Positions 1-62,953 of a DNA stretch of 64,000 bases are shown here, piece by piece; positions within the stretch are counted from its first letter, which is position 1, and every line of letters starts with the position of its first letter. Source of the DNA: Schmidtea nova (Eukaryota); NCBI GenBank assembly GCA_044892505.1, contig CM097882.1:172484001-172548000 (forward strand), in the 5' to 3' direction. The notes beneath the pieces are model-generated. The model made no database searches. It saw nothing but the letters and a program-made list of their open reading frames with translations, and was not told the DNA's origin. A program made the position numbers and the translations under genes.

Positions 1-899
1 AATTAACAAAATATTTTGACATTAAAATAAAAGAATTTTTTGATATTTTTCAGCAAATTCATAAAAATTAACTAGAAAAGAATTTGTTAAACAATAATAC
101 TTACGAATTTATGTGTTTCACTCGTTTAATTTAATTTGTTTCTTGCATTTTTTAAAAATTTTATTTGCTAGCTTGTAATTCAAACATTTTTCATCCATCT
201 CTTAAAAACAGTCGGGTAAGTTAGGATTTAATTATTCGTATATTAGTTAAAGATACAATCCTCCCTGGCAGCGATCTTGTATTTAGCTGAAAAAACTTAT
301 TAATAAATGAACTACAAAAAACCGATAAAATTCTGTTTAATCGATCTGACATTTTCAATTTTTATTGACCCAGTAACATCATTATAATACATATTGTTGG
401 GTTTTAATTAAATAGATAAATAACAGTTTATATATCTGACTCGTATTTATTAAATCAATCTGTTGGGTGGTCTGGTGAATTTCCATGACAAACCACACTT
501 CATGGAAATTACAAATCACTCGTACATACACCCGTGATTATTCCAAACAACCACGTTGGTAATGTCTATTGCCGCCTTTGAAAATTAGAGTGCAGATGAG
601 CATAGTTATCACGACTAATCTCCACTAAATTCTCACAAATGGGTTCACTTATGTGGATGGAAGACATTTAATACTGCTTTCTTGCCAAACTGGACATAAA
701 TTTTCGGCATTCTATTACCTTTACATACTTTAGCCTATACCTCCTAAAACAACTCCATATTTACTTTCAAGAACATGAAACAAACATATATTACTATTAT
801 GCAAAAACAACTACAATAAAATTTATTTTTGTATGTACATTTACAAGAGATTTATCTCGTTTAACAGGTCCAATTTGGTTAAACTGTCGAGGTATTCCA

Positions 900-1340
900 A
901 CTGTCTCGTTACTTGTCTATCGAACAAGCTTTCGTGTCGTTGCTTCATTTTTCGTCTCTTTTTAGCACTAAGTCGAGCGTGTTTCGTCTTTTAAGGCACT
1001 ACGTTCTGTTTGGTTTCCATCACTTTGGTCTGTTCAATTGGCGTAGTACTCCAATCTCGAAGAGTGATAGGATGAATTTTCCATCTCAACTCTCATTGTA
1101 TAAATTCTTGGATCATCTCTTTCCGGCAATTATTTAGTTCGAAATGCTTCGCACTTAATATTTCTTCCGATTTCTCATTAGCCCTTCTAAGATGATCGAT
1201 CTTCAAATGGGCTTTCTTTATTTTGACCGCGGAGAAGTATGACTTTCTAAATCGATAATTTTCTTCTTGAATTGCTCTAATACCTTCTCCCAAGCTCGTT
1301 ATTATCTGGCACACTTACATAACCATATGCCTTTCCCTGA
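900..1340 (-). pseudogene. Degenerate copy of unknown accessory ORF-B (homolog of 43240-43593)
   Basis: Minus-strand translation QFKKKIIDLE(fs)KSYF...ELNNCRKEMIQEFIQ*ELRWKIHPITLRDW aligns with [14 protein letters not shown]...[30 protein letters not shown]. Has a frameshift and stops; ends approximate. Confidence 0.75.
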
Positions 1341-1649
1341 TATCACCGTAGAAGTAGACATTAAGTTTAAGGTAAAAAAAATATAATAACCATATATGAT
1401 AATTTACGAAATCAATTCGCTACCATTCCACTAAGTTCCTTGCAATTACTCCAAACGAGTATACTGCCCTTATCAAAATAATTTTACTCGCTGATTATTA
1501 TACCTCATACTAAACTACATACATTCAATTTACCACATACAGCTAAAGATAAGAGAGAAAAACATATATTTTTTACTAAAAAGTTCATGACTATTAGTTT
1601 TTTGAGAGTTGAGGTCTTTAGTCTAAAATTAGGAGACTGATTATTGATA

Positions 1650-2000
1650 TCAACTCTTTACGAGAGATTGTACCATTTTGCAATATCTCTGAGATGCACT
1701 TGATTCCAATGAGAATCACTTGGAAGTAAGACGAGAGGCTGATGTAGTCCCTTTCGGCGTCTATCGGCTATTTATGGCTACCATGCCACAAGGTCTCTAC
1801 GTCAAATCCACGCAAATGAAGAGATATTGCCGGCTCGTTTCTGGCGTCATCCTAGAACTTTAGGATCCTCTCGATTTTACTCTCAACAACCAACCAGGAG
1901 CATTCGAAATATGAACTTGAATGGTGGAAATAGAGTCGATAATTTTTTAAATTTCATCAATGTTTGGCCTGATACTATGCGAAATATCATAAATTTAACA
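1650..2000 (-). pseudogene. Degenerate copy of unknown accessory ORF-A (homolog of 42439-42900)
   Basis: 1833-1744 (-) reads PAISLHLRGFDVETLWHGSHK*PIDAERDY versus [29 protein letters not shown] at 42627-42713. Ends approximate. Confidence 0.65.
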
Positions 2001-3039
2001 TATACCCATCCCGTGCTTACTGCTTATTCTATTGTTTACAATTTGCGCTTTGGTTGCTATAGACTTTGTTCAATAATGCTTCCTGTGTAATTTAATCTAA
2101 TTCGCGAGATGTAAATGTGATTTTTGTTAGATGAATTGGCAAAATTGCAATTTAATACGTTGATGTTCATATTTATTGACGATATATCATGACTACTTAC
2201 GGATGTGCATTATCGATTTATTAAGCCTGCCAAGAGCATTGTTGAACTTATTTGTAATTATAGAAAAATAAATTTGACTCAAGGGATTATTACTGAATAC
2301 TCATTGATCGTACTTTCTGCAATGGAATGTTTTGCTCCCGATGTTACTACTAAATTATTTCCTACTCGTATTTGTGCTTTCAGAGAAAAACTCAAATTTA
2401 AATGTCACTACTAAATAGTTGTTGTTGTACTCGCACCTTTGGGAAAACTCTAAATTTAACTGTTCACTGAATGTACTCGCGCTTTGAGAAAACTCGAATT
2501 ATTCGGCCACTACCATGCCTTAGACAGTAACATTTATTTATTTTCCTAATTTACTTAAATGTACCCCTAACAACTTTCATTATTTTACTAAGCTGATGAC
2601 CTCGGTTGCCCACCTCCGTTTCGCCTGTGTGATCTGGGGTCTTTCACTCTCTGGAAACTCGTTGCTGGGAAGCCAACAAAGTTCCGGAAACAAATTCATT
2701 TAAATGGATACAATGGTTGGAAACTACAGTTTCGTCTCTGCGAACCCTGGTTTCCCACTCATTGGGAACTTGTGGCTGGTTAGCCAACAAACTTCCAAAA
2801 TAAACTTTCATTTTAATGATGAATAGATACAAAACATGAGGGTTTACCCGTAATCATAATATCAACTAAAAACAAACGAAAATTACTTTATTTTCTGCTA
2901 CGATTCTCAATCAACGATTTTCGACCAAAGTTCAATCACAATAATGAGAATTAATATAAGTTGTAATGCTAACAAGTTACGAGTTGCCAAGTCGTTAAGC
3001 TAAGTCGTTCATGTTTTCTTGTCTCTTCTGTGTCTAAGT

Positions 3040-3090
3040 TTGACTGGTTCTTATATAGTAGTTTGTGATTTGAATCAACCAATCAGAATT
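3040..3090 (-). promoter_or_regulatory. Possible Pol II promoter upstream of the ORF-A/ORF-B cassette
   Basis: CTATATAA on - (3051-3058) and CCAAT at 3079-3083. Motifs are short and the genome is AT-rich. Confidence 0.3.
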
Positions 3091-3149
3091 GATTCGTCTC
3101 CGAAAATGTGAGAATTTATCATTATATTTTTAACTAATTGGATTTATTT

Positions 3150-5710
3150 ATTTTTCTAATTATTCCTTATACACTTCTCATCAATTTAAACGGGCTACAT
3201 TGTATGTTGTTATTTTGTGGTCTTAATAATATGTATTAAATTAGACTTGTGAATTTGGAAATTTTTATTTTTATTATGCATTGAATAGTTCCTTTCTATC
3301 CATATTTATGGTTACTGTACAATTATACATCTCTTGTATTTTTATGATTTCCTTCTGCTTTCGTTCCAAATTGAACTGCTTGTTTCATAGTATACATCTG
3401 TGTCCAAGTAAGTTACTTATTTTAGATATGACTTTATTTCTATAATTACTATAAAATCGCATTATTTATTTATCCCAGCTGATACCCATCACTGAGGGCA
3501 TGGGCATCCGCAGAAAATTTTCTATTGGGATCAAAATATTTTTAGTAATGTTTTAATGTAGTTTTAATTTACTGTAGCGTATTTGTATAGTGAACGACAT
3601 GAGACTGTAGTAATAAAGGGCATATTGTAGCACAAATTGTTTATAAACAAAATAGATGTATATAACAAAAAATATTACAACATAAATTTAAAATAAAATT
3701 TATTCTTTAAACAAAAACTGGAGTCTTCTGTTATCGCTACCAAACATATCTACAATTTTGTCCATAAAGTCTTTGTTGTTGCAGTTCACTTTGTCTCTGT
3801 GTACGCTTAACATGCACAATCCAGATCTAAGCCATGTTTATACACGAAATTATGTACCGAACGATCTCTCCACCGTACACGTTGTTTCTGTTAATGTTAG
3901 CAAAACTAGTAAGGCATACCTGACACTCGGATAAAACTTTGTAAAAGGTAACAAGTCGATTAAATCTTGGCTAGTTTGTATTCTTGCGTTTTCCAAAAAT
4001 CAAACCAACTCAAGGCTTCAGTTTCAAAATTATCAATGTGGTATACCTGATAAATAGTAGAAATTATATCCTTAAATTGTTGACTATTCAATTTGCACAA
4101 TTTCGAAGGATGTAGCAACACTAAGTTAAATTGTGCACTGTTGGCTTCACAAAATCGACTCTTCATTGAGTTAATTAGAGAATCTAAGTATGGAATGTAA
4201 ACTGTTTGTCTGAAGTACTCTTCAACACTTAGGGTTCCTGGATTACTTCTATCTTTTGTCTTCCACACTGTCTTGAGATAATCAGTTCAATATCCACTTT
4301 CTGTGCGAGTTGTACTGTTTTCTCAAATATATCCCTGAAATAGTTAACGGAATCACCACGGTGAAGTTTTACTACACTGAGCAGGTTTTGAACTTGTGGT
4401 TGGACTTCTGGAAGATCAATTTGAACAGCTTAAAGAGCCTGAGTAACTAGTTTCAGTGTGACAGAGTACTGCGAAATAATATTGAGACAAAATAAAAACG
4501 TGCTGGACTTTGATGAACAATATAACTGATGTGCAGCCTATCGTGTATTTCCACGTGCATGCAATGAAAATTCTTCCAGTTGACAATAAATAAAAATCCG
4601 AATACTTTTATACTTGCTAGTCCATCTTGTCTCAAACAGAAGAAGAATATTTGGGACAGAGGACCACATTTTTGGGCTTTTACGAAAAAATGTAATAATT
4701 TCTGATAGTACCAATAGTATTTCGTATCACTGCAACATTATTGAGATCACTTACTACGAGATTCAGTCTATGCGAGGCACAGTGAAGAAAGGCAGCCTTG
4801 GAGTAAATACTTCTAATATTTGCCTGATTTGGCCATTGCCGAGCACCCACCATAACCTTGACCCAGCAGATTATTAAGGAGAAGACCAAATGTTTTGATT
4901 TAAAATAAAAGTAACATTATTTGACAATTTTCAATCAATCCAAAGGGGGGCTGGCAAGTACCCATCTTTGTCCCCTGCCTGCGCCCATGACTGAGGGATG
5001 TTGTAATAAGTTTTCCAAATTAAAAAGAACTCTAAACATTAACTTAGCGACTCCAGATTTAAAAGATTTAAAATTTAGAATAAAGTAAATAAATGTAAAT
5101 CATTCAACTCATTCATATTGTTGGTGTAAAGGCTGTTTAATATTTGTTATAATTAGAATTCCCATAACCATTACACTTTCACTGATCTCACTTATGTACC
5201 CGTTATTACTCTCCGGTAATTATGTTGGCAATGTACACAGTGGTACGAGAACCAGTGAGCAGGTGAGCGTCGTTATCATAACTACTCCTTATTGCATTCT
5301 TCTTTTGGATTTCTGGCTGCCAATATAAGGTTTTAAACTCATGATTTCTTTCTTTTTTAAGTTCCTCTCCCTCATTAATTCATAACTTTTTAGAAGATTG
5401 CATAATATTATTTTACATTTACACCAATTTATCTGCATTGGTTTTTTAACGATTTGAATAGTTTTCCGCTCTAAATCTCAGATTCGATTCGAATTCTTCT
5501 ATCTTAATTTACTTGATCAAAATGTTTGCTCAAGAATCTGACTGTATTTTTCGATTTAAATTTCTAGACTTTGATTATATGTTTTACTGGATTTGCCCTA
5601 CCATTTAAACGCTAGATAAGTCCTTCAAGATTCGATTTTCGAGATTTGTGTACTAATTTCTTCCTCCAACTAGACAAATGACTCGAGCGAACTCAAGCCG
5701 TATCGCCAGC
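3150..5710 (-). mobile_element. Highly degenerate LTR-retroelement remnant (gag-like and integrase C-terminal-like), interrupted by the hAT element
   Basis: Weak motifs IEEFESNLRFRAEN (~5470), HPSVMGIS across the hAT insertion site, and TGGCGATACGG at 5708-5698 resembling a PBS. Confidence 0.35.
3499..4989 (-). mobile_element. hAT DNA transposon, internally deleted
   Basis: Perfect 8-bp TSD ACTGAGGG (3491-3498, 4990-4997); termini CATGGGC/GCCCATG; transposase fragments FLHCASHRLNLVV, YLDSLINSMKSRF, TCTVERSFG. Confidence 0.92.
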
Positions 5711-5989: not shown

Positions 5990-7274
5990 CTGAAATTAAA
6001 GTGCATTCAACACGGTGCCTTTCTGCGTGTGTTGGTCCTATCTTTGTTATTTTAACTATATTTCAATGGGGATTTTTACTATAATTCTAATACATTATTC
6101 TATTTATTTTGGTACTATTTACTCATAGCTTCACTTAAACAAATGAATTATAACACCTAGATCTATAGGTTTTAGTAGACTGGTGGTATTCGATGGTACA
6201 AACTACTGTTGATAAGATTAGATGGCGTGTGTACAGGTGTATTTTTAATATTAATCATCACTTTAATCTGGATATCCTGAGACTTACAATAACATATGGC
6301 TTCAAGTATAAAATTATTGCTAAACCAATTTTTAAATGAAGAAGTTGTTACCAAACCTTTACAGCCAGACCTTTAAATCACTGGTAGGTTCGATTTTGAT
6401 TTGTTTTTTAAGGCTCTGAGACTTTAAAAATGAGAAACAAATAGTGGTTTAAATTTGAAATCACCAGTAGTATTTTCTTGTTGAATAAGTTTTGGCCGTC
6501 TTTGCCAGCCTTAAAATTAGGGAATATCTTTCCTTATGCACGGTGAATGTTCTTGTGAACATTTTATTTCCGACTTCATATAATAAACCTCTTATTATAT
6601 CAGGAAAAGAGGATGCTAATTCTATATTTACACTTGCAGATTTCTCTACTTTTTGCAATGTTGTACTGATGGAATCGTTGTTTCAAACGACAGAACTATC
6701 CATTTCTTGGTAGAAAATTCTCGTGTTTTGCATCGTTTTCGATTTCTTCTTTTAGTTTGTCAAAAGTCTGTTTAACGTTACTACTTCTAGTATTCTGGTC
6801 CACTGGATAATTCTTTACATTCACTTGATTTCTACATACTGCTTTAAAAAAGTCTCCATGCCGGCAATAATCCGATGTCGTTTATGAATTAAACTTGAAT
6901 ATAATGATTCAGCATTTTTAGCAGCATCAAAAACTTTGTTTTTATTTTTTATTATTGTGTGGACAGTAGTGTAAACAATGTGGAACCTCTGTGTTATTTT
7001 GCATGGTTTCATTCCACCTTCAAAATCTTTAATAATTCTGTATTTTGATTCCAAAGTTAAAACTTTTTTTTCTTTGTTGAGTTTGATGAATTAGACTTTT
7101 GTTTCACTGTCTTAAGGTAGGGCGACTCTAAATCTTTATTGCAAAATAAAGTAATTTAAATATAACCCGTAAAATATAATAAATTGATGAACTAATCATA
7201 TAATAAATAGATTTGGCTAGGGTTTCAATGAGAAATTACGTATCTCGGAATTTAAGCAAGTTGGGGTATTATTG
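5990..7274 (-). mobile_element. Tigger/pogo transposase pseudogene
   Basis: psq/CENP-B-type HTH start (6821-7054); DDE-region motifs GDFKFKPLF, FKNWFSNNF, NTTSLLKPIDLGVI; TA-flanked terminus near 7274. Left end approximate. Confidence 0.8.
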
Positions 7275-9545: not shown

Positions 9546-12500
9546 GTAATTTGTTATCCATGAAATCTTTTGTTTATGTACTAAAAGTATAACTATAGCG
9601 GAAGAATTCGAATGGGAAGCTCAATTGAGGTTTTATTGGGTAAGAGATATTGACTGTATACGAATTCGACAGTGCTCTGGCGAATTTGGATACGGTTACG
9701 AATATTTTGGATTGAATGGCCGTTTAGTCATCACTCCACTTACAGATAGAATTTATCTAACGCTCTCTCAAGTTAGTATTACCATAACACATCATGTCAT
9801 ATATTAATGATATTTCAAATTTTACATGATATTTTGTCAAAACTTTACTAATACAGACTTACAAAAAAATATACTAACATTATGTAATATCTTGACATTT
9901 GGCAATAAATCTATTTAGAAAAGTTATGGTTTTATTTCATCCATTCAAAATTCAATATTTATTATACAAACAAAACAGTGATTATTAAAACACTGATATA
10001 TTTAATGATATCTTAACTCCCATTCTCTAAGAGTTTGTCCACTTTTTAGCCATTCGATTTTTCGTTTTTTTATTGCGGTAAAATACTTTATCTCAACTTG
10101 ATGAGGTGAGATGAATCTAATTACTTGAAATGACCCTTCATACTGAAAATCATCTTTCTGTCTTTTGTGAGGTTCCATTCGAATTAAAACCCACTCGCCC
10201 TCTTTAAAGTCTCTTGAAACCTACTTATCACTTTCAAATTGGCTCATCTTTATTGATGCTTTCTCTAGATTTATTCTGTTTTTATCAGTCGTCCGATCTA
10301 TACTTGTTTCTTAGACATTGAATTTAGAATGAATATTAATCTTAGTATCATATACTATTTCAAGTGGTGAAAAATCTGTGAGGCCTTGATGAGTTTCATT
10401 AATGTTGATTTCATTTTGTGCTAGTAATTCAAACCATCATTGTAGCGTTATTGGAAAAGCTACAATGATTAGATAAAATATATTTATATTAAAATACAAA
10501 TTATTTATCATTTTGTTGCATTTTGAAAATCTCTTCATTATGTTGCATTTTGAAAATCTCTTTATTATGTTGCATTTTGAAAATCTCTTTAATTAAATAT
10601 TGTGATAAATATTTATTATCGGAGGCACTACAATCATAATTGATTCTATTGCTAACCAACAACAATCAAATCTGTAGTGCCTCCGCCATATATATATATA
10701 TATATATTTTAACTTATTTAATATATTATATTTACATAACTATATAAAGTAAAGTCAGATATTTATAAAAAAATTTGTTTAAAAGAAAAAAAAACAGATA
10801 TCCGATTTGAAAATCAAACGCAAGCAATTTACAATAAATTTGAAATCCAAATGCAAGCAATTTACAATAAATTTGAAATCCAAAACTCAAGAAATTTATA
10901 ATTGATTTGAAATCCCAAACGCAAGAAATTTATAATAGATTTGAAATCCAAACGCAAGCAATTTACAATAAATTTGAAATCCAAACGCAAGCAATTTACA
11001 ATAAATTTGAAATCCAAATGCAAGCAATTTACAATAAATTTGAAATCCAAAACTCAAGAAATTTATAATTGATTTGAAATCCAAAACTCAAGAAATTTAT
11101 AATTGATTTGAAATCCAAACGCAAGCAATTTACAGTAAATTTGAAACCCAAACGCAAGCAATTTACAATAAATTTGAAATCCAAACACAAGCAATTTATA
11201 ATTGATTTGAAATCCCAAACGCAAGAAATTTATAATAGATTTGAAATCCCAAACTCAAGAAATTTATAAACTCAAAAAAATTGGAAAACTCAGAAAAGAA
11301 GATATTTTTTAAATAAATGTGTATTGAATATTTCTTCTTGTTTAATTTTGTTTTAGAGGTATCTGCAATGAAAGTTGCAACCCCTACAAAATCCTTCACT
11401 ATATATGTTCTAAGTAATATTTTCTTAAATATTATAGTGAAATATAATTTTATTCTTCTTTGCCGATCTTTTGTTCAAGTCATTGCTGATCAAGTTTAGA
11501 AATCACTGGTCGAATTTGTTTGTGAAAAAGATTATTCTTTCAGTTAAATGTTGTTGTTTTCACAACTATCAAAATAAACACATGAATGCATTTGATGAAT
11601 TTAAAGATTTCCTGCTCTACACATAATTACATTATAAAAAAATTTTCTTTTTTGTAAATGGATTTTTCATGAATTTTGATTTTTATTCAAAAATCTTGAT
11701 GTGTTTATTTCTGAAATAATTTTCTCGAGATTTTTAATTTATTATTTTTAATGTTTAAGGCATTATCAATGAATCTCGGGGGTGCTCCTGCTGGTCCAGC
11801 AGGTACTGGTAAAACTGAAACAACAAAAGATTTGGCAAAAGCATTAGGGTTGCTATGTGTCGTTACTAACTGTGGCGAAGGAATGGATTATAAGGCATGC
11901 TTTATTATTTTTTTTGTGAATATTTTTTGTCAGTAAATACAGATAATAGCTTATTATTATAACTTTATTACATTTTAAATATTAGATTTTCCAAAAATAC
12001 CGTTGTAAATCTAATACAAGCATTAGTCAATTTTTATCATTCGCTTTCTCACCAGGAACTTTGTGGGTGACTTAAGGAAAATTTCAATATTCTGGAAGAT
12101 CATAAGATACTAAGTTTAAAAGTGAAACTTTTCATACTATACCCAAAAAGTGAATTTTTCCGAAGAATCACTTGTAAATCCACGGAACGTAAAATAAAGA
12201 TCTTCGCTAAAAAATACAGATTGTAGTGAACTTTCACTCAGGCAATTCATTTGTCCTCATGTCATTCAGTGTCCTATCATCACATCTTATTCTTTTTTTC
12301 AGACTCTCAGAAAATTACCATTCTAATTCAGTAATGAGAATAGTTTAGTAATTGCCATATGTCTGCCTTCTTCAGTTAAAAGTAGTATTAAAAGTTTTTT
12401 TTAATTTTCAGGAGGAAGAGAAATAATAAATTCTACGTTTTCTACAAAGATATCGACGAAACGCCTTCAACAAAAATATTAAAATTTATAGACGTTAATC

Positions 12501-15500
12501 AGTGTTTCATATAATGTTAAACATTTGTTGACATCAGGATTCTCATTAATTGGGCGCTTAAGTGGTTATTTAAATGTGGTTTAAATGCTTTTTTTTTAAA
12601 AACGTTGAGAAATTTTATTTAAAAAATCTGATTATAAAGATGAATTAAGAAATGAATACATTTGTTTTAAAATACCTAATAAAAAGATGAATTCTTTTTT
12701 TAAAACATGATATTTTAATGTTTTAAACAACAAGGAAAACCTTTTATGAAAATGGTTAGTCAAAAGTCCCTTACTGTTTTCCATATATCATATACACTCA
12801 AGCAATATCTACAAATTCAGATCTATAAAATCCTGGAAAAGGTTTTAATTATTAGAAGCATTTTAAAGTCTGTTTCGTTGAAAGTGGAAATTCTTGAGAG
12901 TATAAAGCAAATTACAGTGGAAAGAGCACGAGAATAAATTACCCTCAAGTGTTTGCATTAACGACTACCTATTGAAAAACATACAAAATAAAGAGAATTT
13001 ATTGAAACATTTATTAAAAATATCCTAATTGCAATAATGATTTGCGCAAAAACAAATTTAGCTTTGCGAAGAGATTGTAGTAAAGTGGGAAAAGATGAAA
13101 CGGATAATTTTCCATCACGATTAAATTTTTTGATGAAATGTTAGGTCATATGCAGAGCATTCATTACAACCATACCTTAATAATCAAAACATTGAACTTG
13201 AAATTATGTAACTGTTGATTAAATATTTATCTTCTAAAGAATGCTTATTGTTCCATCAACAGAATTCTATTTTATGTAGGGTTCGCGTGAAGACCATATT
13301 CCTTGTGCCTTAGAATGTTTCTNNNNNNNNNNNNNNNNNNNNNNNNNNNNNNNNNNNNNNNNNNNNNNNNNNNNNNNNNNNNNNNNNNNNNNNNNNNNNN
13401 NNNNNNNNNNNNNNNNNNNNNNNNNNNNNNNNNNNNNNNNNNNNNNNNNNNNNNNNNNNNNNNNNNNNNNNNNNNNNNNNNNNNNNNNNNNNNNNNNNNN
13501 NNNNNNNNNNNNNNNNNNNNNNNNNNNNNNNNNNNNNNNNNNNNNNNNNNNNNNNNNNNNNNNNNNNNNNNNNNNNNNNNNNNNNNNNNNNNNNNNNNNN
13601 NNNNNNNNNNNNNNNNNNNNNNNNNNNNNNNNNNNNNNNNNNNNNNNNNNNNNNNNNNNNNNNNNNNNNNNNNNNNNNNNNNNNNNNNNNNNNNNNNNNN
13701 NNNNNNNNNNNNNNNNNNNNNNNNNNNNNNNNNNNNNNNNNNNNNNNNNNNNNNNNNNNNNNNNNNNNNNNNNNNNNNNNNNNNNNNNNNNNNNNNNNNN
13801 NNNNNNNNNNNNNNNNNNNNNNNNNNNNNNNNNNNNNNNNNNNNNNNNNNNNNNNNNNNNNNNNNNNNNNNNNNNNNNNNNNNNNNNNNNNNNNNNNNNN
13901 NNNNNNNNNNAATTTTTGGATACAATTATAAGCGCAAGATAAAATTTTCACATTTCAATAAAAAGAGTCCGGTCAGCAACTCAACTTCATTTTTATATAC
14001 GTCGCTTTTGAATTAAAACTGTCACATAGAAAGTTTGGATAGATCAAGTAATGCTTATGTCATATGTATTGGTGCTCCATTTCCTTTGTTTTGCCTGTCT
14101 AAAATCTTTTTCAACTGAAGCTCATGCTGCAGGATCCTTTAAATAATGAAATTGTCAACTAATTGACAACATCAATTGTAGACCGAATAATAACAATCTT
14201 TTTTGTTAATATTATCATTATGATTAATTATATCAGTATTATTTATAATATCAGTAATAATTTCAGTCTTTTGGGAAACTTTTATCTGGTTTGTGTCAAT
14301 GTGGAGCTTGGGGATGTTTTGATGAGTTCAATCGCATTGACGTGTCAGTTTTATCGGTTGTCACTACTCAAATCAAAACTATTCAAAATGCTTTGACATT
14401 GAAGTTGGTAACATTTTCTGTAAGTTTCTTTTACCAAAAATTGCCCTATTCGCTTTCAATTACTTTATATTGTATAAGTTTTATTTTAATTAAGTTTGAA
14501 GGACAAGAAATCAAACTTCTACATAATGTCGGGGTTTTTATCACAATGAATCCGGGCTACGCCGGAAGAACGGAGCTACCAGAAAGTGTGAAAGCATTAT
14601 TTCGACCTGTGGTAGTGATTGTTCCCGACTTGGAATACATTTGTGAAATAATGCTGTTTTCCCAAGGATTTCTTTCAGCAAAGGTTAACTGATTAAGAAT
14701 TATTATTATTATTATTTTTTAAATATTTTCCGAAAAAGGAGCTTGCAAAAAAGATGACAACAATTTATAAATTGGCCAAAGAACAATTATCACAACAATA
14801 TCATTATGATTTTGGGTTGAGAGCTCTTAAATCGGTTTTAGTCATGGCAGGAGATATTCGGCGTGAAAATCCGGAAGTATCAGAGAAAAAACTTCTTATG
14901 CGTGCCTTGCGGGATATGAATTTACCGAAATTTATTTTCGATGATGTACCATTGTTTATGGGCTTAATTACCGACTTATTTCCTGGTGTCGAGTGCCCAA
15001 GAGTTCCGCATCCTAGTATGTCAAAGGCGGTAGCTGAATATTTTGAATCTGAAAAATATGATGTTCTTCCTTCTCAAGTTAATACTAATTTAATTTTTAA
15101 TTTTTATTTTTTGTTCAGCATTTCATTTGTTTTAACCTAATTTCATTTCTTTATCAATAATAATTTTATAGACAGTAAAAATGAAACTTTTCGAATGTAC
15201 TCAGCTGATGTGTCAGCCATTATGACTCTGTTAACCAGCAGTAGAGGAATCCTAGGGCACTTGATCAAGTTAGATAATCTCGAGTCCCTTAAAAATTACA
15301 AATAATACAAGTCAACTACATTAGTACAGTAGGGATAAGTGTAGAGACGCGGGAATAGTGGAGAATACATACATATAAAAAGAGTTTTAAAAATGAGATT
15401 CTCTTCAGTCAGTGTGATGATGTCATAAAAAAAGATAAACTATAAATTTAAAAAAATGGACTGTGAGAAAAATGAAAAGGACAGAAAACGTGACGTTGAT

Positions 15501-18500: not shown

Positions 18501-21500
18501 TAACAACAAACGCCAATCCAAATATATATTTTGCACAATATATTTCGAGAACTTAATTCTCTTCATCAGGTGCTACCAATGTTACATCCAAATATAAATC
18601 AAATAAATCGATTTTTTCGAACAAATTAGTAATAATTTTTAAAATAAAATATATATTTTAAATTCTATTATAGTCAAAAAATTTAAATCGAAATACAACT
18701 TTTAAATTTAAATAAATTAATCTTAAAAATATAATATTCTTTTATTTTTATACAAAGAAATATTTTTTTTTAGAATATATTATAAATATTTTCATATTTA
18801 TAAACAACAGAATGATTGAAAACGATGTTACATCCAAATATAAATCAAATAAATCGATTTTTTCGAACAAATTAGTAATAATTTTTAAAATAAAATATAT
18901 ATTTTAAATTCTATTATAGTCAAAAAATTTAAATCGAAATACAACTTTTAAATTTAAATAAATTAATCTTAAAAATATAATATTCTTTTATTTTTATACA
19001 AAAAAATATTTTTTTTGAGAATATATTATAAATATGAAAATATTTATAATATATTCTTAAAAAAAATATTTTTTTGTATAAAAATAAAAGAATATTATAT
19101 TTTTAAGATTAATTTATTTAAATTTAAAAGTTGTATTTCGATTTAAATTTTTTGACTAATAGAATTTAAAATATATATTTTATTTTAAAAATTATTACTA
19201 ATTTGTTCGAAAAAATCGATTTATTTGATTTATATTTGGATGTAACATTGGTAGCACCTGATGAAGAGAATTAAGTTCTCGAAATATATTGTGAAAAATA
19301 TATATTTGGATTGGCGTTTGTTGTTAATTTTTTCAATAAAATATAAATTTAATTACTAATTTTACTGTTTCAATTTACACGATTTCGATTTACACGGTTT
19401 CGATTTACACGGGATTTTTAAGGAACCAATTTACCGTGTAAATTGAGGGCAAAGTATATTTCATAAATTATAACGCTTTATTTTTATTATTTTCAATTGT
19501 TCATAATATTTTAAATAATTATTAACAAAACATTAGAAGTATTTTTACATAAAAATTATTTAAGGTTGATAAAGTTGTTCAATTCTATGAAATACTATTG
19601 ACAAGACACTCGGTGATGATTGTTGGACCCACATGTGGTGGAAAATCAACAGTCATAAAAGCATTCTGTCAAGCGACGATAAGGTATTTTAAATTTGCTT
19701 TTAGGTCGATATTTTTATAAAAAGTTTGGATGAAGAAGTAAAAATAAACTATAAATAATAAACATGTTAATTTAAACAATTGTTTCCCTTTCATAACAAT
19801 TCAAAGTACATGTCAAACTTTGTAACATTGCAAAAAATATAATTTAAACACTAAAAGGATCGTAAAAGAATTTACAAAGAAAGCAAAAATTGTTAAAAAA
19901 GTAGCGACCTTTGCTTTCTTTTTATATTCTTTTTTCGATCCTTCTAGTATATAAATTATATTTTTTACAATGTTACAAAGTTTGACATCTACTAATATCT
20001 TTGATACACCAAATGGTACACATTAAAATGATTTTGTTTAAATATTAATAAAAAATGAAAAATTCGATTCAAACCACCAGAATAAAAAATTATAAAATGT
20101 AAATAATTAAAGGAAACTAAAAGATGCCTCCCACTAGTGCGGGTATTATTAACACGTTCGTGGACAAGCCGGCATATGCCGTCGATAAATTTAGAAAATA
20201 TAGGGACACTGCGGGAGATGTCGTTGTTCCTTTTTTCAGGTATTGGGATAAAACGGCATATGCATACATGAAATACCTTATAAAGTATTGAAATATAATT
20301 CAAACGACCCTTTAAAAATCATTTAATTTTCATATATGAGCAATTAGTAAGATTTCAATTGAAATACAAACCGTTAACACAGATTGTTGCAAAATTGGTT
20401 TCTAGAAAAGTCACTTCACTTTCCAACAACCAATTTCTACTGTCCGCCAACGTGTTAACTTTATTTTACAAAAAAATTAGTAAATACAATGTTTTTTGTT
20501 GAAATTAAATTCCTTAGTAAATGCGTACTAATGAGTTCTTTTATTGGTCGCGTCTTTTGACTACCAAAACATAGTGCTATCTAAATCTCATTCAGGTGTC
20601 GGGAAATATTATAGTAATATTTCAGAGAGATTTCAAGTCTTAAAATTAAACATTTCCATAGAAACAGATGTCTTAAGCTTAAAACGTCAAATAAATTTAA
20701 TTAGCCACATATACACTTATGATTTCTCTGTTTTTATCAAAATGTTAGTATTGTGTTTCGTGATTGAAAACCAATGGGTAGGTAACTTAAATTTTAAAAA
20801 TACTCCAAACTTTTTCTATTACGATCGACATTTACATAATTTATTATTAGTTCTCACAGAATTCAATATTTTATGTATCACAGTTCATCTCATTTACATG
20901 ACTTCCTTAAGAAATTTGCTCAGCATTTCTGATGGCTTTTGGCCAAAAAGTCACGAAAAGTTCGAATACGATTGGAAATAAGTTTCTTATATGTAACTAA
21001 TGAAATCCAAATAATCTTGCAACTAGTTTGCTATTATTAATAGCATTGAAAACTTTAATTTAAAATGTTTATATTATCTAAACTTTTGTGGTTCACAAAA
21101 ACAACAAAATCACACTTTGATATTTTATTTAAACTTTAAGGAAATTTTGTGAATTTTCAAAGTAAATTTTAAGAAAACAAATAATGACTAAGTCTAATGG
21201 CATAGAAAGAATTAAAATATCTAAGAAGATTTTGATTGACCGAACTAGATTATTTAATTTTTCTAATGAAATTATTTAAAATCTAGCCCGACCTACCAAA
21301 AGTCTCCAGTCAGGCAATTATTTTCATATTGTAGTTTATACTGAACAGTTTATAATAAACAGTTTATAATGAACAGCAATGGGAACAAATGTCACAAACA
21401 CACACGAATACTGAATATTTGTGGTGCTGAGAGAGTTAGTACTTCGTTATATTAACTTTCATCTGGATAACAAGGCGCACTCGTTTAGGCATTGTATCGA

Positions 21501-24500
21501 GCACTTTTGCCAGGAAATCAGGGGAGATGTTTGATCATTCCTCATGCAGATGTGTTTCCAGTTCGTAGGCGTTACGAGCAATGGGAATCCTTTTGCGAAC
21601 TTGTCTACCAAGGACGTCCCAAAGAAACTCAATAGGATTCAGATCAGGGCTTTGTGGAACCCAATCCAAAACGTTGATGCTGTGCCACAGAAAGAATTCC
21701 TTCATAATGTGCGAAGTATTGATTGGTGCATTATCCTGTTGGAAAATGAGCCACTTAATATCTGGGAGACATCATGTGATTGCTGCACTTCACTAGAGGG
21801 CCAGTTCCACGAGTTGAGAAAAGACTCCAAAGCATAATGGAGCCTCATCCATATTTCACAGTTGGCTGAATGCAGTCAGGGTGGAATCGTTCTCCTACAC
21901 GACGCCAGCAGAATTGCTGTCCATCAGATTTGAAAATAGTGAAACGTGATTTATCAATCCAAATGATTGAGCGCAATTGTTCTGCTGTCCAATTCCTTCT
22001 CTCCCGGCACCACTACAAGGGACGACTACGAATTGTTTCTGTAATCAAAGGCTTCCTTGCGCAGTATCTGCCATAGAAACCATGAAAATATAATGCGAGA
22101 CGAATGGTGGACATCCTGGTATGCACAGGGCCAGTGTTAAATGTGGGCACTAATTTGAACAGGGGGAGCTGACGATGAGCCACCACAAGTCGTTTCAGCT
22201 GCCGTTGTGTACGGATGCTCAGAAGTTTAGGGCGGTCTGAACGTTGCTTGTTGACATGTGTCTGCTCCTGGCGGTACTTCCTCAGGAAGTAGTTAATAGT
22301 TCCTTTGGGATGGCCAGTCAATGCAGCAGTTTCACTCTGACTTTTTCCACAAAGGTAAAATCCGTAAATAATGCTTTTCTGAAAGTCTGTAAGCTCTTTC
22401 CGAGTAGCCATATTCTTAGAAAATAACAATCCTTCATTAATATGACTCACTGTTATCCCTGTTGTGTGTTTGGTGTGAGAAGTCATATTCTATGTGTCTG
22501 TGTGTGAGTGCGTGCGTGTGTACATGTGCTTATACAGAATTTTGAAGGTGTTGGTGACCTTTGTTCCCATTGCTGTTCATATTTCCACTGCAGACGTTCA
22601 TTATAAACTGCAATATATAAATAACTGCCGGACTGGAGACTTTGGTAGGTCGGGGTATGTATAGTGCTTATGTAAATTTGCAATTAAATATGCTTTATTG
22701 AAAATAACGTAAGAGCCGCATTATAACACCACTTCAAAAAAAACTAAAAACAAAAATTATTTATTATAACTTGAATTTTTATTTAATCAAAGTATTCTAC
22801 ATTATTATTTAAATTCTATTTCATTTTCTAATGCTAGATTAAACATCCCAACAAAACTTTATACCATTAATCCAAAGGAGCGTACAGTAAATGAATTATA
22901 CGGAATATTGGATCCAGCAAGTAGAGATTGGACGGATGGGTTACTGTCTTCAATATTTCGTCAAATTAATCAACAGACTGATAAAGAGGAAAGGCGCTTT
23001 TTATTATTTGATGGAGATGTTGACGCTCTATGGATTGAAAATATGAATTCGGTGATGGATGACAACCGTTTATTGACCCTTGTTAATGGGGAGCGAATAC
23101 GTTTACAACCGCATTGTTCATTGCTATTCGAAGTCGGTGATTTGCAATATGCCTCACCAGCCACTGTCTCTCGATGTGGAATGGTATATGTGGATCCAAA
23201 AAATCTTGGATATAAACCTTATTGGGTTAAATGGGTATGAAATTCAAATATTTTATAAAAGGTTTTGTAATGATTAAGTCGCATACTCAATTTCCTTTCT
23301 TACAACTTCCTTCGCTAACAAGACGCCTCCAAATACTTAGATTATATAAAATTATTAATAGCTAAACAACTTCAGTGTAAAAATTTGCATGCATTTCTAA
23401 ACTGCGCGCTTTTACACAATAAAATGACTGGACAAATGAGGGGTACATTTTAAAATTAATTTCCAAACATAAAATATTTCAAACAAACGAAATCCATTCA
23501 ATAGACAATACTTAAGAACTCTGTTGTAGATATAACGGGTAGTCTTTCCAATATTTGTGGCATTACACCAATTTCATGAAAATTGATTTACGTGTTTAAA
23601 ACACAAACTAACGACCGAGTCATATTTATAAGTGAACATTCTACTAACTTACCAAGACGCGGGAACAATCCTTAATTGATCCGTACCCACATGTTTGAGA
23701 ATCTTATCCTTAAATTCTCTGAAACCCTCAATAAGTCAATACTAACAAATATTTCGTCTCAGCGCAATTAGATCGATCATTGTCCCTTTCCGAAATTAAC
23801 AAATTACTATGATGAGAATCAATAGGCACCTTACATCCAGACACACTTTTACCAAGATCAAGTGAATTCAACATCAACTTATCAATAGGTACTTTTGTCA
23901 TTCTCTCAATGAAAGGTTTAGAGTAGCCATTTTTAAGTGACATATCAACTGAAGACTCGACTATTTTTACTGAATTAACAAATGTAGAGTATAATGACTA
24001 TACATGAAAGACCAATTCTCTCACTATATTCTTTTATATTTAAATTCACAAAGATCGCTTTCAGTCAATTTCCTGTATATTTCAGTCTCATAATGTTTTA
24101 ACTTGCATTGAATGAGTAAATCCCCAAAACACAATAGATGAAATTATTTCTTCCTTGCAAGTAATTTAACGTTCGAATGTACACTATGTAAGGCCTTACA
24201 TATTCAAAATTCTCAAAAACGCAAAAAAATATCATCGACATACCATTTGCACACAGTTGTTTTAATAAGATGATATGACATACATAGCTTGTTGAAAAAT
24301 ACCTGAAATTAAAAAGTCACTCAATACTTCCAATTTCTACTGAAGTTTAAACGACGCCCTTGCAATAAGAGACAGTTTATACTCTTAGATTTCGTCTATT
24401 TCATGACCCACTACGCCGTCTGCGCCTACTTAAATTCCCAGATAATTTATGCATCATCTTAACTCATTGACGATATAATCTTTCCCCTCGCCTTAATGCT

Positions 24501-38400: not shown

Positions 38401-41400
38401 ATATATTATAAATTTAAGCGATTCATTAGAAAAGATTCAACACGAAAATTTAACCGATTTGTCAGTTTTGTACTCTGTGAAAGTTGATTAAAATTATTCC
38501 GGAAATACTAACAATAAGGATACGGATATTCGCATGAAAAAGTTGGATTTGATTAGCAATATGGGAATGACAGTAAGATCAGAAACGAAAGCACATTTGG
38601 AATCTGGCTGGTACTGATATATCAATGACATGTAAATTTGGTGTAGGTTTCTACTCGTCTTATCTAGTGGATAATAAGTCTAATTCACATTAAAATACAA
38701 TGATGATGATAAATATCTATGCAAATCATCAGCTGCCGGCTCGTTTACACTCAAGTATGAAAATTCTGAACCAGTGGGTAGAGGCATAAAGATCATTTTG
38801 TTCATAAATGGAGATTAAAACTGATAATGACAGAAATAAAATTCTAGTAGTGATGAATTGTAAAATTAATTTAGAAAAATGACTTAGTTTTATTAAATTT
38901 TTATCTTATTGTGTTTTATGAAATCAATATGGAAAAGAATACTTAAAGGAAATTGTGTTGAGATTGAAAATTAATTTTTTATGTCTTCTGTTATTAATTT
39001 TATGGCAATAAGTTATTCAAGAATTGAAGTGTATATATTTATCGGCTTGAAAGAATCAAAATTAAAATTTAGTTTAATCTTGTCAATTTAAAGAATTCTA
39101 AATTAAAAGTAATATAAGATTTACATTTACCTTAACTCCCATAAATGGGATACAACTATATTACAACCGATAATATATGTAACATCATTGGAACCTTGTC
39201 CAAATCCTAAAAGTATAAAAGTAAGAAACTGTATTAGTCAGATGCCAGAAAATTATTAATATTGTAAACTAAAAATCTTCCGTACTCCAAACTGAGAACA
39301 TTTAAATGTTTGCAAATATTTGAAAAATTTTATGCTTATAATATAACTAAAAATATTTATAATATCAAAAGCTGTAATCTAAGACTAGTGATTTCATACC
39401 AGGATCCCGGGCGATTTTTTAATATCGTAATACCGGTATTAACATCATCTCAATACCGAGAAGTTAGTGAAACATTTTACTTTTTACTGCTATTTCGATA
39501 AAATAATAGGATAATTTTATGTTGACTTGAAGTTGTAATGAAATAAATATTTTAAAATAGCATATAACATCTGTAGCTTACTTCACAAGTGTTATTGTTT
39601 TTGGATTTTTTAATGCGTGAAAATTATAATATGAAATAAATTTAATTAAGGCGAAACTAGTGAAACGTAGAAATTATTTTATTCTATTGCATTCGGTAAA
39701 GTTATTAGTGTTAGGTATTTTCATTAAAATCTTTCTTAAAATATTTATCATTAATATTTTTTATGATGAAATCTTTCAGCAATTTTCATTAGAACTGATT
39801 TTTTGCAAATCATTACACCATAATTATTATGATATGTATTTGATTTGCTGAAGATAAATATATTTAAATTTTTATTCTTAGAATTTCACAGTAATTATAC
39901 AATTTTCATTTTATATCCCCCATAGGAAATATGAAAGAAAGGTCAGTTTATGAAGTGCAGTTCAGTGTGGCTACAATTTTTGAGAGAAAAAATGGAAAGT
40001 CAGCAAAATGTAAGATTGAGAGATGTGGTACTCTTATCAAAACTTTAGGAGGATCGACAAGTGGTTTACATAAACATTTGAAAACAAAATAATAAAATCA
40101 ACACAAAGAAAACACCTAGCTCTGACGAAAATGTTGAACAACCGCCAAAAGTAATTAAAAAAAACAAAGATCACGGACTATATGATTGACAAAAAAACGA
40201 TGGAAGAAGTGTTTGCAAAATTAGCTGCAACAGATGGACTTTCATTTAAAGTTATTGCCACATCTGAGGAAATTTGAAACGGATTTATGGCAAGAGGATT
40301 TAAAAACATTCCGAAACATCCAGCAACTATTAAAAATATGATCATAGACTATTCTAATTCGATTCAGGAAAAAATATCAATGAAAATACTTGAGTTGAAG
40401 TCAAATGAGAAGAAGTTTAGCATCTTCTTCGATGAGTACACTTCTATAAAGAACATAAGATATCTCAACATTATTTTTTTCGAAAGCCAAAAGTTTTGGA
40501 ATATTGGTCTAGTTCGAATAAAAAGAAATTTGCCGGCAGATAAATCTTTGGATCTTGTTACCACACGTCTTGCAGATTTTGGATTAAGTTTAGATCATGA
40601 TATAGTGTTAATCACTACTTATGGAGCTGCTGTAATGAAGAGACTTGGTACCTTAGTACCGTGGTTTCAAAACTTGTGCCTAGCCCACGGTATACAATTA
40701 GCTGTTATTGACGTAATGTATAAGAAAAGAGCTTATGATAGCTGCGATTCTACAGATTATGAAGCATAAGTTTCTGATAGCGAGGATGAAGAAAATAACG
40801 ACAATGATGAGGACGATTCATATAGTATTGATAAAGAGCAAGAATTCCTACCAGAACTAACAGATATGAACAATTTCAACGGAACAATATAAAAAGTAAG
40901 ACGAATATTTAAGATATTTAGGCGATCTCCAACAAAAAATGATATTTTACAATAATATTGCGTCAAAGAACATGGTAGAGAGTTGCAGCTTCTTCTGGAT
41001 TCCAAGACTCGCTGGAACTCGATTATTATAATGCTTGAACGATTTTAATTGCTAAAAGATTTCTTTAAGAAATCGTTTATTGACCTTAATAGCGACAGAG
41101 TTAAGTGAATTAGATATTGAAATAATATCAACTGCAATAACAGCTTTATCACCAGTTAATTCCGCAGTGAATGCTTTATGCAAAAGTGAAGCAAATCTTT
41201 TAACTGCAGATGCGACATTGTCATTTACCATCAATAGCTTGCATAATGATAATGCGTAATCCATGGCTTTAAAGGAAAGTCTCACATATCGTATTTTAGA
41301 ATGTCGGACAGTTTTATCTAGTGTGTTGGATTATTTACATTTTGGAAGGAAAATCTCAAAAAATGTGATTTTTCCTAAAGCTTCTCAACAAACGATATTA

Positions 41401-44400
41401 AATATCGCCTCAAATCTCTTGGAACGTTTGTCAAATCAATCTATTGATGATGAACATGAATTATCCGAAAATGATTCTGATTCGGAAAAGTGGCGTAGCC
41501 GGGAATCTTTTCAATCAGTTGAAGTAAAACGAGCAAAATCTAGAGATTAAAATTTTTACTTAAGCTAACCATGTTTTATCATTAAATCACCGACATAGAA
41601 TCCAGCTTTGATATTTTGCAACGAGAGCGATCAAGTAGACAAATTTAAACTTATCGTCCCAAACCAATTGTTAGGATATAACCGATAAATTGACATAACT
41701 ACTCGAAATCCTGTATCGGGCGAAGTAAGGATAGGAAAAAGTTAATGATAAAACATTTATGAAAAACCACCACAACGAGTTAGTTTATTTGAACAGCTAC
41801 CTTATTTTTATCGTGTCTAGTCCAACCCAATTACCCTTATTCCCGTCGACAAACTAATGATAATAGGAATTAATTTAATTCACCCACTCCATGCCCATTT
41901 AGCAATGGATTTCCACATACAATCTCGAGAAAGTAATTATATATCGTAGTAGTACTTACCGATATCAAGTAGGGGAAATTTTAAGCCATATACCGCAGAG
42001 AGTAATTGAAATGCGTAAAGTGAGATCTCAAGTGGTAAATACTAGAGATTAATTCAGCAAAAAATTGGCATTAGAAATTTTCAAGTGCAGTAAAGCGGCA
42101 GTGACATATAATTCCTACCGAGAATTCAAGATCAGCCAAGTACATAGCTAATAAACTTGAAACTACTTGAGGAAAACTATTTAAACATTAGAAAGAATGT
42201 AGACAATGAAAAAATTTGATTTGGAAATTGCGCCGTGTTGACAGTAAATTTTCGTTAAAATTGTAATTAAAAAATGTAGGGGAAATTCCACTGAAAATAA
42301 TAAAAAGCCATTGTTAATAGTCCTGTAATCTGAATACTAAAACTTATATAAATCCCATCCTAAATCCTATGAAGGCATAAAATTAAATTTATCAATTAAC
42401 TTAAATATTATTTTTTTTCAAACAGAGAACAATTAATCATGGAACGCATCTGTATACGAGTCCAACATGTAACGAGTTACGTTAACGAAGCGGGTTCCGA
42501 TCATCAGGAGCCGAGGGCAAGGGAAGACTATCTAGTCTGGGCACTCCCTTTGTAGAACATACCGACGGATCTGGCGAGGCAGATCGTCGACGAACATTAA
42601 CAATTGTTTGAAAAAAAAGAGTTGTGCCTCCTTTTAGTCTACACCAGGATAGTCCGGACATTATCACGTGGCACGGTGGTAGATCGTGGCCCATCAATGT
42701 CGACCGGGACTATCCTAGAGGTATGCCGCAATACTTTGTGGAGTCGCCAACCGATATTCCAGGGCGGTTCCGAATGTATTTTACGGGATCGATTCCCCAA
42801 GAAGAATTCTGGAGCATTTTGTCCTAGATCCAGCTCCAACAGATCTAGCAACGTATTCACCACATAGCCCCTCAGGAGTGCAAGAGATGGACACGGACGA
42901 AATATGCATTGATTTTATCGATGTGTGTTAAATATTATTATCATTGTTATGTGTCGAAAATATTAATTAACTAGTTATGTTGTTCTTAAAATATTTAGAA
43001 TATCTAGTAATAATTTACTTTATTTATCGTAAACATTTGAGTAAGACTAAATTGCAGAGCAATAAAGCGAGTTTTCGGCAGAAGGGAATAGAGTTGAGTA
43101 TAATTGGGCAGGGATAGGATTATAAGCAAGACACATTTTAGGTTGCGTCGAGGAAAATGTAAGGTCGAAGGGAAGTCACTGAGATGGAGGAAAAGATAAA
43201 GTAAAATGAAATGATCCTAATTTTGTTTCAAAGTAAATTATGTCATCGGAAAAGGGGTTGATCGCAAAGTTGAAACGACGAATCTTGGATCTGGAGGAGA
43301 GCTACTTCGCACCGGCGGAGATGAAAGTGGTGCATGAGAGGTTGCAAAGGGCTCGGAAAATGATAGAGGATCAACGCGTGGAGTTAGAGGCCACTCGGAT
43401 CGAAACCAACAATTGTCGCCGAGTAATCACGCAGAATTTCGTGGACGCGCAGTTATCAGGGTTGATTAGACCCATAACACTCGAAAAATGGTTTCCTGAG
43501 CTGCCAAGGGAGGAGAGTACAATAAAAGTACCAAAGAAATCGAGCAAACCAAAACCAAAGAATCGCCGAAAATCTCACACACAGAGACGCTGACAGTTGA
43601 AGTAAAAACTTGCCGACGAGAGGAGTAAATTGACACCCGATACCACACTGAGAATGAGGAGACTGAAAATTGACGTGACGGATTATTTGAAATAATGTTT
43701 TGTATAATGTTGAAATATATGTAGTATTAAATCTTGTTGAAACAGTTTTAATTTGTTTGAGGTTTTATTAATAAGTAAATAAATGAAAGATAGGGTTAAG
43801 TTATTGAATCACCATTAGAAAGAGACGAGTAAGACAGAGTACTAAATTCACCCTAAATGAGAGACCTGCGACCGGGTGAGAAGTTAGAATGAGAAGACCT
43901 TCTATCGGTCAAGTAGAACTCGAACGATACGACAAATCAGGAGTAGTTTTTGTGAAGGAGCAACCTGTTGGTTTCCAATCGGCTGTTATGAGCATTTCTA
44001 ACATGAAGAATTTGGGTATTCACAGATGCATAAACAGTGAGGCTTTTATGGGTGTGTTGTAACTCTTGAAAGTAAAGCGAGGGACAGGTTAGGTTGTTGA
44101 GGATCCAAGTAGAGATGGAAAGATACACGATAAGAAATAGATATCAATTTCGAAACCTACAACACACCAAAAATATTCATACTTTATAGTGGAGCATTAT
44201 TAAAAAAGAAAAAAAAATTATTTATAATTCAGCAATCTATTTTTTATACATTTTTTCTATGAACATCCAATACCGGTATTAATACCGGGATCCCGGTAGC
44301 GAATATTTCAATACCATAATACCGGTATTGAAATTTGGTCCGGTATTGAAATCACTATAAGACCTTAAAATTAACAATATAAATTTATTTCAATTTAAAA

Positions 44401-62639: not shown

Positions 62640-62953
62640 TGTAGTAACTCTGAAATAAATTACTATCGATAATAAACATTTATTTAAATAAAAATGTCTG
62701 CGCTGCGATTTGAATTGCTTCCTTCTTCATATTGAATAAAACTGCTATTTTTGAATTTGAATTTGCTTGCTGCTTAATATTGAATAAAACTACTATTTTG
62801 AATCTGAATTTGCTTGCTGCTTGATATAGAATAAAACTGCCATTTTGAATCTGCTGCTTTACTTTTGAGTTTTGTAAAAGTCGGTTTATTTTTTTAATTC
62901 TCTCTTCTTTTTGTAAATTTAAACAACTCTGATTAATATTTTTGTACATAACT
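62640..62953 (+). mobile_element. Probable copy 4 of the solo-LTR-like family, running into the gap
   Basis: TGTAG start; CTCT.AAA...CGATAATA...ACATTTATTTAAA shared with copies 2 and 3; ~47-bp repeat x2.7 at 62732-62858. Confidence 0.55.

Follow-up and report, generated by a model that had tools for sequence, protein, structure and literature searches.

What are the two short open reading frames, ORF-A and ORF-B, that stand in tandem at two places in a 64,000-nucleotide stretch of Schmidtea nova DNA (the window)? A first-pass annotation had noticed a degenerate minus-strand cassette (copy A) and a plus-strand cassette (copy B), about 41 kb apart and with the same two ORFs in the same order, an arrangement that our analysis bears out. 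It had taken the ORFs for accessory genes of a retroelement or endogenous virus lineage, with gag- and integrase-like remnants upstream of both copies; this second part stands less well, as will be seen below.

The window consists of AT-rich animal sequence and carries, on its plus strand, an axonemal dynein heavy-chain gene. Judged by its sequence, this host gene is a DNAH10-like dynein, the exon at 22815-23231 matching DNAH10 with an E-value of 5e-70. Dynein domains span the window from ~9.7 kb to 61 kb, and the introns fall into two sizes, ~45-75 nt or kilobase-scale, the latter packed with transposable elements (TEs). Copy B lies in an intron, between an exon end at ~38050 and an exon start at ~44400. 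The position of copy A is upstream of all the dynein exons detected; since these encode the middle of the protein, it probably also sits within an earlier dynein intron. Among the other residents of the window are, on the minus strand, a young gypsy element (53416-57360; LTRs of only 109 nt, 99% identical; gag-PR-RT-RH-IN with few breaks), an older gypsy-type element, from a different clade, whose RT and RNase H are separated by a DUF7047 (49000-52190), a piggyBac-like transposase remnant (46322-47757; DDE_Tnp_1_7, E 5e-42), a Pogo/Tigger-like remnant (6200-7100; CENP-B_N, DDE_1) and a Tc1-like remnant (22013-22489; HTH_Tnp_Tc3_2). Dispersed repeats clustered at 25675-34716, direct and inverted, 150-480 nt long and 72-98% identical, are probably small non-autonomous DNA transposons. 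Tandem arrays occupy 10805-11269 (33-nt units), 18579-19049 (246-nt units) and 62711-62853 (47-nt units), an assembly gap of ~620 N runs from 13310 to 13930, and a degenerate stretch at 38480-38820 (+), within a dynein intron, resembles by eye an N-terminal fragment of Hsp90. The features that concern the cassettes are collected in Table 1.

Table 1. Position, strand and character of the two cassettes and of the features around them.
Feature	Position	Strand	Remarks
Copy A, 3' stretch	480..838	-	counterpart of 43693..44030
Copy A, ORF-B	841..1361	-	pseudogene; significant homology over 952-1283
Copy A, ORF-A conserved core	1636..1833	-	pseudogene; in-frame stops at 1854, 1770 and 1620
Segment upstream of copy A	2552..3141	-	CCAAT- and TATA-like boxes by eye; ~95-nt imperfect internal duplication
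hAT-like DNA transposon enclosing copy B	39386..44357	+	matching inverted ends; 6-nt flanking direct repeats
Integrase-like degenerate stretch	41629..42250	+	four motifs, at 41650, 41866, 41902 and 41940
Splice-acceptor-like site, T-rich	42406..42425	+	13 nt before the ORF-A ATG; putative function
Copy B, ORF-A region	42439..42928	+	broken across three frames, two stops
Copy B, ORF-B	43240..43593	+	open, 117 aa
Copy B, 3' stretch	43693..44030	+	possible nucleotide homology to 838-480 (-); suggestive

The two ORF pairs are true homologues, colinear and later decayed. The ORF-A cores, 1833-1636 (-) and 42627-42824 (+), are identical at 23 of 65 residues and reach a frameshift-aware score of 72, attained by none of 150 triplet shuffles (maximum 41) and by none of 188 other segments of the window (maximum 40). 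For ORF-B, 1283-952 (-) against 43258-43590 (+), the identity is 38/110 and the score 148, against maxima of 44 in 100 shuffles and 42 in the 188 segments, none of which reached it. In the annotated frame the BLOSUM scores are 98 and 189, and in the five other frames they are at most 12. By tblastx, ORF-B gives an E-value of 7e-10 over 65 ungapped codons, and ORF-A only 0.25. The protein-level relation proposed at the outset thus holds for both ORFs, the pairwise alignments beating every shuffle and every segment. All the motifs that had been quoted are present (in copy A a frameshift at ~1243 splits the DLE of ORF-B from its SYF), as is the basic tail of ORF-B, where each copy has 8 K/R among 15 residues, and the distance from the WHG anchor in ORF-A to the NNC anchor in ORF-B is 654 nt in copy A versus 739 nt in copy B. 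Outside the cores no significant homology was found, be it in the N- and C-termini of ORF-A, the region between the ORFs, the extension of ORF-B or the 5' flanks; the regions upstream of A and B cannot be aligned (10/20 and 119/200 shuffles did as well). No third copy was found in the 64-kb window with profiles of both ORFs (best other i-E 0.039).

Nucleotide similarity is weak, as had been seen by eye: the best blastn E-value is 0.19, and the local nucleotide score was matched by none of 200 shuffles for ORF-B and by 13 of 200 for ORF-A. The annotation had read this as long divergence under coding constraint, a reading supported by the ungapped 65-codon block, where 33, 38 and 20 identities fall at codon positions 1, 2 and 3 (Fisher p=0.002), although the block was itself picked by protein score. 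Third positions are near the random expectation of about 0.25-0.28 and none of five four-fold sites is identical, which suggests two lineages that diverged under protein constraint. Chance alignments guided by protein look much alike (0.50/0.56/0.34 over 395 codons), so that gapped codon counts and NG86 values are not independent evidence; what carries the case for constraint is how long and how high-scoring the match is. A dN/dS comparison between the copies, which had been proposed as a check, was computed (NG86), but with pS at 0.87-0.96 dS is saturated and no dN/dS value follows.

Beyond ORF-B, the similarity of the two 3' stretches (~340 nt) depends on how it is measured. With ends picked after viewing, 0/500, 1/500 and 0/738 shuffles did as well; with fixed starts, 9-10 of 500 did at 300-350 nt, and five other lengths were not significant. 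At the protein level the 3' stretches of the two copies do not match, and a third ORF there was rejected, 72/100 and 85/100 shuffles scoring equally. Neither a stable RNA fold (z from -1.2 to 1.6 in 16 windows) nor a meaningful Rfam match was found in them.

Three of the four ORFs are broken, copy B ORF-B alone being open. Copy A, rightly called degenerate, is a pseudogene in both ORFs: the candidate ATG of its ORF-B, at 1361, is followed by two stops, the frameshift mentioned above and further stops at 1095 and 993, and the frame terminates at the stop 843-841. In copy B ORF-A, the ATG at 42439 begins a frame interrupted by two stops (42553 and 42598), the core is open in a second frame (42612-42824), and a coding-looking piece in the third extends to 42928; homology to copy A is shown for the core only. 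The 117 open codons of copy B ORF-B were equalled in 1 of 100 shuffles. Another 33 codons, with two stops, run on to 43692, and their match to the tail of copy A is not significant. The codon composition of the cassette is foreign with respect to the host exons and nearer to that of the gypsy ORFs: GC3 is 0.45-0.56 in the cassette, 0.19-0.28 in six dynein exons and 0.34-0.46 in the gypsy ORFs of the window.

Copy B is nested inside a hAT-like DNA transposon, a circumstance that the first-pass annotation had overlooked. The transposase remnant of this element (39931-41550) has no detectable C-terminal dimerisation part. A zf-BED match (E 0.017) falls below the cut-off, the core has no match in Pfam, NCBIfam or PDB, and its TRWNS and catalytic motifs are hAT-like. 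Between this remnant and ORF-A lies the integrase-like stretch. Each of its four motifs is found a single time across all six frames of the window; they follow the gypsy order and lie 500-800 nt upstream of ORF-A. The patterns, modelled on gypsy integrases and written after viewing the sequence, miss both genuine gypsy integrases of the window. The stretch found no match in Pfam, NCBIfam, PDB or a protein database, nor pairwise with the window's gypsy integrases; a candidate search confirmed 0 of 8, and a five-piece integrase alignment was uninformative. Its openness does not exceed that of shuffled DNA (34/100), and it has 3.4 breaks per 100 codons, compared with 1.8 in copy B ORF-A and 1.9 in the hAT-like remnant. 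By its motifs, this stretch is likely, but unproven, to be an integrase remnant. Of the upstream remnants that had been claimed, therefore, what stands is a motif-level resemblance to integrase at copy B; none was detected at copy A, and Pfam gag and zinc-knuckle profiles found no gag remnant upstream of either copy.

The acceptor-like site ahead of copy B ORF-A belongs to a pattern found 22 times on the plus strand of the window, in six cases with an ATG no more than 20 nt away. Nothing equivalent precedes the ORFs of copy A. By eye, a T-rich tract stands ahead of an M-S start of ORF-B in each copy; in copy A the AG that the proposed ORF-B acceptor would need is missing. A 14-nt repeat at 41516/43594 was considered as a target-site duplication and rejected: 28 of 500 shuffles yield one, and the joined flanks do not resemble a hAT element.

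Upstream of copy A come, in order, short tandem repeats, the 590-nt segment of Table 1 and the end of another hAT-like element. The segment has a 20-nt flanking direct repeat (19/20; 2/300 shuffles) and no match to either 3' region, and probably represents an insertion in its own right or else an unpaired leader. A ribozyme or other structured RNA in 2560-2820 was rejected (z -1.1, no Rfam match). On the strand opposite this upstream region, 2110-2410 (+) contains ~97 codons with one stop and no Pfam match. A hAT-like transposase remnant thus lies further upstream of both copies, that of copy A (3499-4900, minus strand; Pfam E 0.11) being of another family; that both cassettes follow a same-strand hAT remnant is probably a coincidence.

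The ends expected of a complete element were sought around both cassettes. No direct-repeat pair that could represent LTRs was found around either copy, both of which appear truncated; neither has TG...CA ends, and no terminal inverted repeat (TIR) pair directly bounds either cassette. For a polypurine tract, there is no purine run of at least 10 nt downstream of A, and nothing but an A-rich run at 44202 downstream of B. Inspection by eye gave no convincing primer-binding site: a TGG-led site at ~2514 matches the end of the initiator tRNA over ~6 nt only. Copy A has no pol remnant, which truncation could explain. As neither LTRs nor gag are seen in these truncated copies, membership of Ty3/gypsy is not established. 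Even so, the retroelement part of the first-pass reading remains the best one, in view of GC3, the TE setting, the acceptor and the integrase motifs of copy B, while its claims of gag remnants and of an integrase before copy A did not hold. On balance, we consider it somewhat more probable than not that the cassette is the accessory module that occupied the region from pol to the 3' end in a Ty3/gypsy-type LTR retroelement lineage.

One question cuts across the possible origins: ORF-A and ORF-B could be exons of one spliced protein, as in the CERV protein of Cer1, a suggestion that is compatible with the other readings. Host introns are as small as about 45-50 nt, and the AT-rich spacers of both copies hold GT...AG candidates at a conserved spacing; yet the region between the ORFs does not align, the ORF-B ATG of copy B is preceded, two codons upstream, by an in-frame stop, and an M-S start is available to ORF-B in each copy. 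We regard a single spliced protein as unlikely, if plausible.

That the cassettes are instead one or more lineage-specific host genes, surviving as diverged paralogues that are now pseudogenes, copy B having been captured by the hAT-like element as a Pack-TIR, we think rather unlikely. Copy B does lie between hAT-like inverted ends, in place of the transposase C-terminus, and TIR elements of animals are known to capture sequence by gap-filling (PMC8277862); the AT-rich spacers look like introns, and copy A is without any retroelement hallmark. Against this, the GC3 of the cassette is about twice that of the host exons, integrase-like motifs stand directly upstream of copy B, and both copies are decayed amid TE debris.

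The integrase-like stretch, seen without RT or LTR, could also belong to an integrase-encoding DNA transposon (Ginger1- or Polinton-like), with the ORFs as cargo or possibly as downstream exons of its transposase. Ginger1 shares gypsy integrase motifs (PMC6839031), and an acceptor-like site lies past the stretch, but in copy B this acceptor is followed by a separate ATG. No inverted repeat of at least 11 nt surrounds B, and around A there are only short AT-rich ones; nor were Ginger1 TIRs with TG...CA ends and a 4-bp target-site duplication found, though old copies may have lost their ends. We hold such an origin to be quite improbable. Endogenous fragments of an undescribed non-retroviral virus would account for the foreign composition, the compact colinear ORFs, the lack of relatives and the basic tail, which is typical of viral nucleic-acid-binding proteins; but six-frame Pfam scans found no viral hallmark gene beside either copy and the integrase-like neighbour of copy B favours a retroelement, so that this origin is very improbable. 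Chance similarity or a low-complexity artefact, suggested by the weak statistics of ORF-A (tblastx E 0.25; nucleotide score 13/200 shuffles) and the partial coiled coil of ORF-B, has a negligible probability, since both ORFs, colinear on the expected strand, beat all shuffles and 188 real segments, and the nulls already refute it for ORF-B.

What the proteins might do has to be read from their own features. The ORF-B protein (117-150 aa, one conserved cysteine) was modelled from a two-row alignment with a mean pLDDT of 73 and a pTM of 0.31: helices are predicted at 3-22 and 25-72, the latter confidently, followed by a poorly ordered tail with 89-101 disordered. The heptad hydropathy phase is common to both copies, and so is the net charge of +12 of the basic tail, which is lysine-rich and not a pure arginine motif. 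The most conserved block outside the helices, L-x3-I-x-P-I-T-L, has the spacing of a class-1a nuclear export signal (NES) with four identical hydrophobic residues, and includes a proline. Such a register with four identical residues arises in 0.4% of 20,000 column shuffles, or 7.6% if hydrophobicity alone is asked for; NES-like patterns are common, a class-1a match arising in 34% of single-sequence shuffles of ORF-B. No membrane helix was found in ORF-B, the highest 19-residue hydropathy being 0.38 in that of copy A; a wider look for env-like features gave at most 0.86 in the pieces of copy B and 1.49 in the decayed copy A ORF-A, with no Pfam match. The ORFs begin with M-S and M-E, not M-G, and hence have no N-myristoylation motif. 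An env or sORF2/FAST identity is excluded by the absence of a transmembrane helix, a myristoylation motif and homology to fusion proteins. Retroviral Rev, Rex and Rec are the RNA-export adaptors to which ORF-B can be likened, and with its coiled coil, NES-like motif, basic tail and absence of a membrane helix, a Rev- or CERV-like export adaptor would be its closest counterpart, an assignment that we offer tentatively and think more apt to fail than to hold.

The core of ORF-A gives a beta-rich model of low confidence (pLDDT 54). Residues 2-67 of the copy B core align with an MBT repeat of L3MBTL1 at a non-significant E-value of 0.13; the match was not repeated by copy A, a two-copy profile, Pfam or a fold search with the low-confidence model, and is therefore a lead only. 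AlkB-like and ubiquitin-conjugating-like readings of ORF-A, based on motifs that we presumed characteristic, were rejected, both being absent from copy A and without support from Pfam or PDB.

The first-pass annotation had recognised no domain, and neither sequence, profile, language-model nor fold searches have found a homologue. For ORF-B, a word search gave 2 candidates and no match, phmmer against 1.84 billion representatives gave none at E<=0.001, the best ESM Atlas value (0.85) is at the level of a lead only, 0 of 69 pattern matches in GTDB were confirmed, and neither PDB sequences nor Foldseek against viral structures and PDB gave a match. For ORF-A, none of 171 candidates was a match in a word search that covered proteins of at least 138 aa outside the 1.84-billion set, the Atlas gave no usable match, and the best fold-search hit had a Z of 3.4 with the pLDDT-54 model. 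Both ORFs are without a match in Pfam, PHROGs and NCBIfam, and exact look-up returned 0 of 3. No description of the pair came up in full-text searches of the literature (main texts), which cannot match sequences, and the available text of PMC8532177 and PMC11410931 contains nothing further on accessory ORFs. The protein pair is real, constrained and apparently undescribed; it may already stand as an unnamed ORF in TE libraries or host annotation.

If the cassette is indeed a retroelement accessory module, what survives here would be two insertions, both truncated and decayed, that stem from separate and only distantly related families. The layout of copy B could have arisen by insertion into the hAT-like element followed by deletion of the hAT C-terminus and of the 5' part of the retroelement, or, alternatively, by gap-fill capture into the hAT-like element. 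Each ORF would be translated from a spliced subgenomic RNA, the T-rich acceptors lying just before each ATG; and if the RNA of the element has splice acceptors, a route of export for its unspliced genomes is needed. ORF-B, in this model, would oligomerise through its predicted coiled coil, its basic tail would bind the element RNA and give entry into the nucleus, and the conserved L-x3-I-x-P-I-T-L would recruit CRM1, so exporting the unspliced genomic RNA of an element whose RNA carries splice sites. Such a mechanism, similar to that of Rev, Rex or CERV, is an analogy that we put forward as a doubtful one. ORF-A may be a small, probably beta-rich, soluble cofactor. That an invertebrate gypsy lineage should have a pair of spliced regulatory genes like that of a complex retrovirus, consisting of an independent Rev-like exporter and possibly a chromatin reader of the MBT/Royal fold, is a speculation with little probability. 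As part of the same speculation, the module may have gone on spreading non-autonomously once pol had decayed, since the integrase-like stretch looks more eroded than the cassette and no pol accompanies copy A.

Export of unspliced LTR-retrotransposon RNA has been worked out for very few elements, the CERV protein of Cer1 being one example, and a second, unrelated export factor would, if true, extend the repertoire of regulatory genes of retroelements. Any new accessory family selected across diverged gypsy families would likewise widen that repertoire, and if the pair is merely another ORF in TE debris, its value is that of a new family for TE libraries. With its frame open, the ORF-B of copy B lends itself to direct testing.

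That elements carry additional ORFs behind pol is nothing new. LTR retrotransposons of bdelloids carry ORF3s of the env, GDSL, DEDDy and coiled-coil/transmembrane kinds (PMC5408684); the cassette resembles these ORFs, which are added behind pol in particular families of invertebrate elements, but consists of two tandem ORFs and has no Pfam match to GDSL, DEDDy or fusion proteins and no membrane helix. In the MDG1 group, sORF1 and sORF2 are a small accessory pair, one of them nuclear, sORF2 sometimes following pol (bioRxiv 10.1101/2025.03.14.642691). The small pair and the polybasic patch are alike, whereas a transmembrane helix and, in most cases, an N-myristoylation motif mark sORF2, features that ORF-B lacks. 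Retand (TRP28) has conserved ORFs between pol and the 3' LTR, possibly with a regulatory function (PMC11963269); the Retand ORFs are from plants and antisense, those of the cassette from an animal and sense to the integrase-like stretch. Copy B recalls animal Pack-TIRs in that foreign DNA is enclosed by a DNA transposon's inverted ends, but this DNA looks like a mobile element and not like host exons, and copy A lies outside any TIR pair (PMC8277862). The giant gypsy elements of planarians named Burro, compared here by description, also carry accessory ORFs, decay into fragments and live in an AT-rich invertebrate host type; their MATH, BIR, BCL2, ankyrin and env domains have no Pfam counterpart in the cassette (PMC6431247). 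CERV, the extra protein, distinct from Gag and Pol, of the Cer1 gypsy element of C. elegans, is made from a spliced RNA and multimerises (PMC10309623). CERV is a large protein that has G and M domains as well as a cysteine loop, whereas ORF-B is small with one conserved cysteine and has a second ORF beside it in the cassette; like CERV, ORF-B combines a candidate nuclear export signal with no resemblance to known retroviral proteins, a likeness that would be one of function, without a link in sequence.
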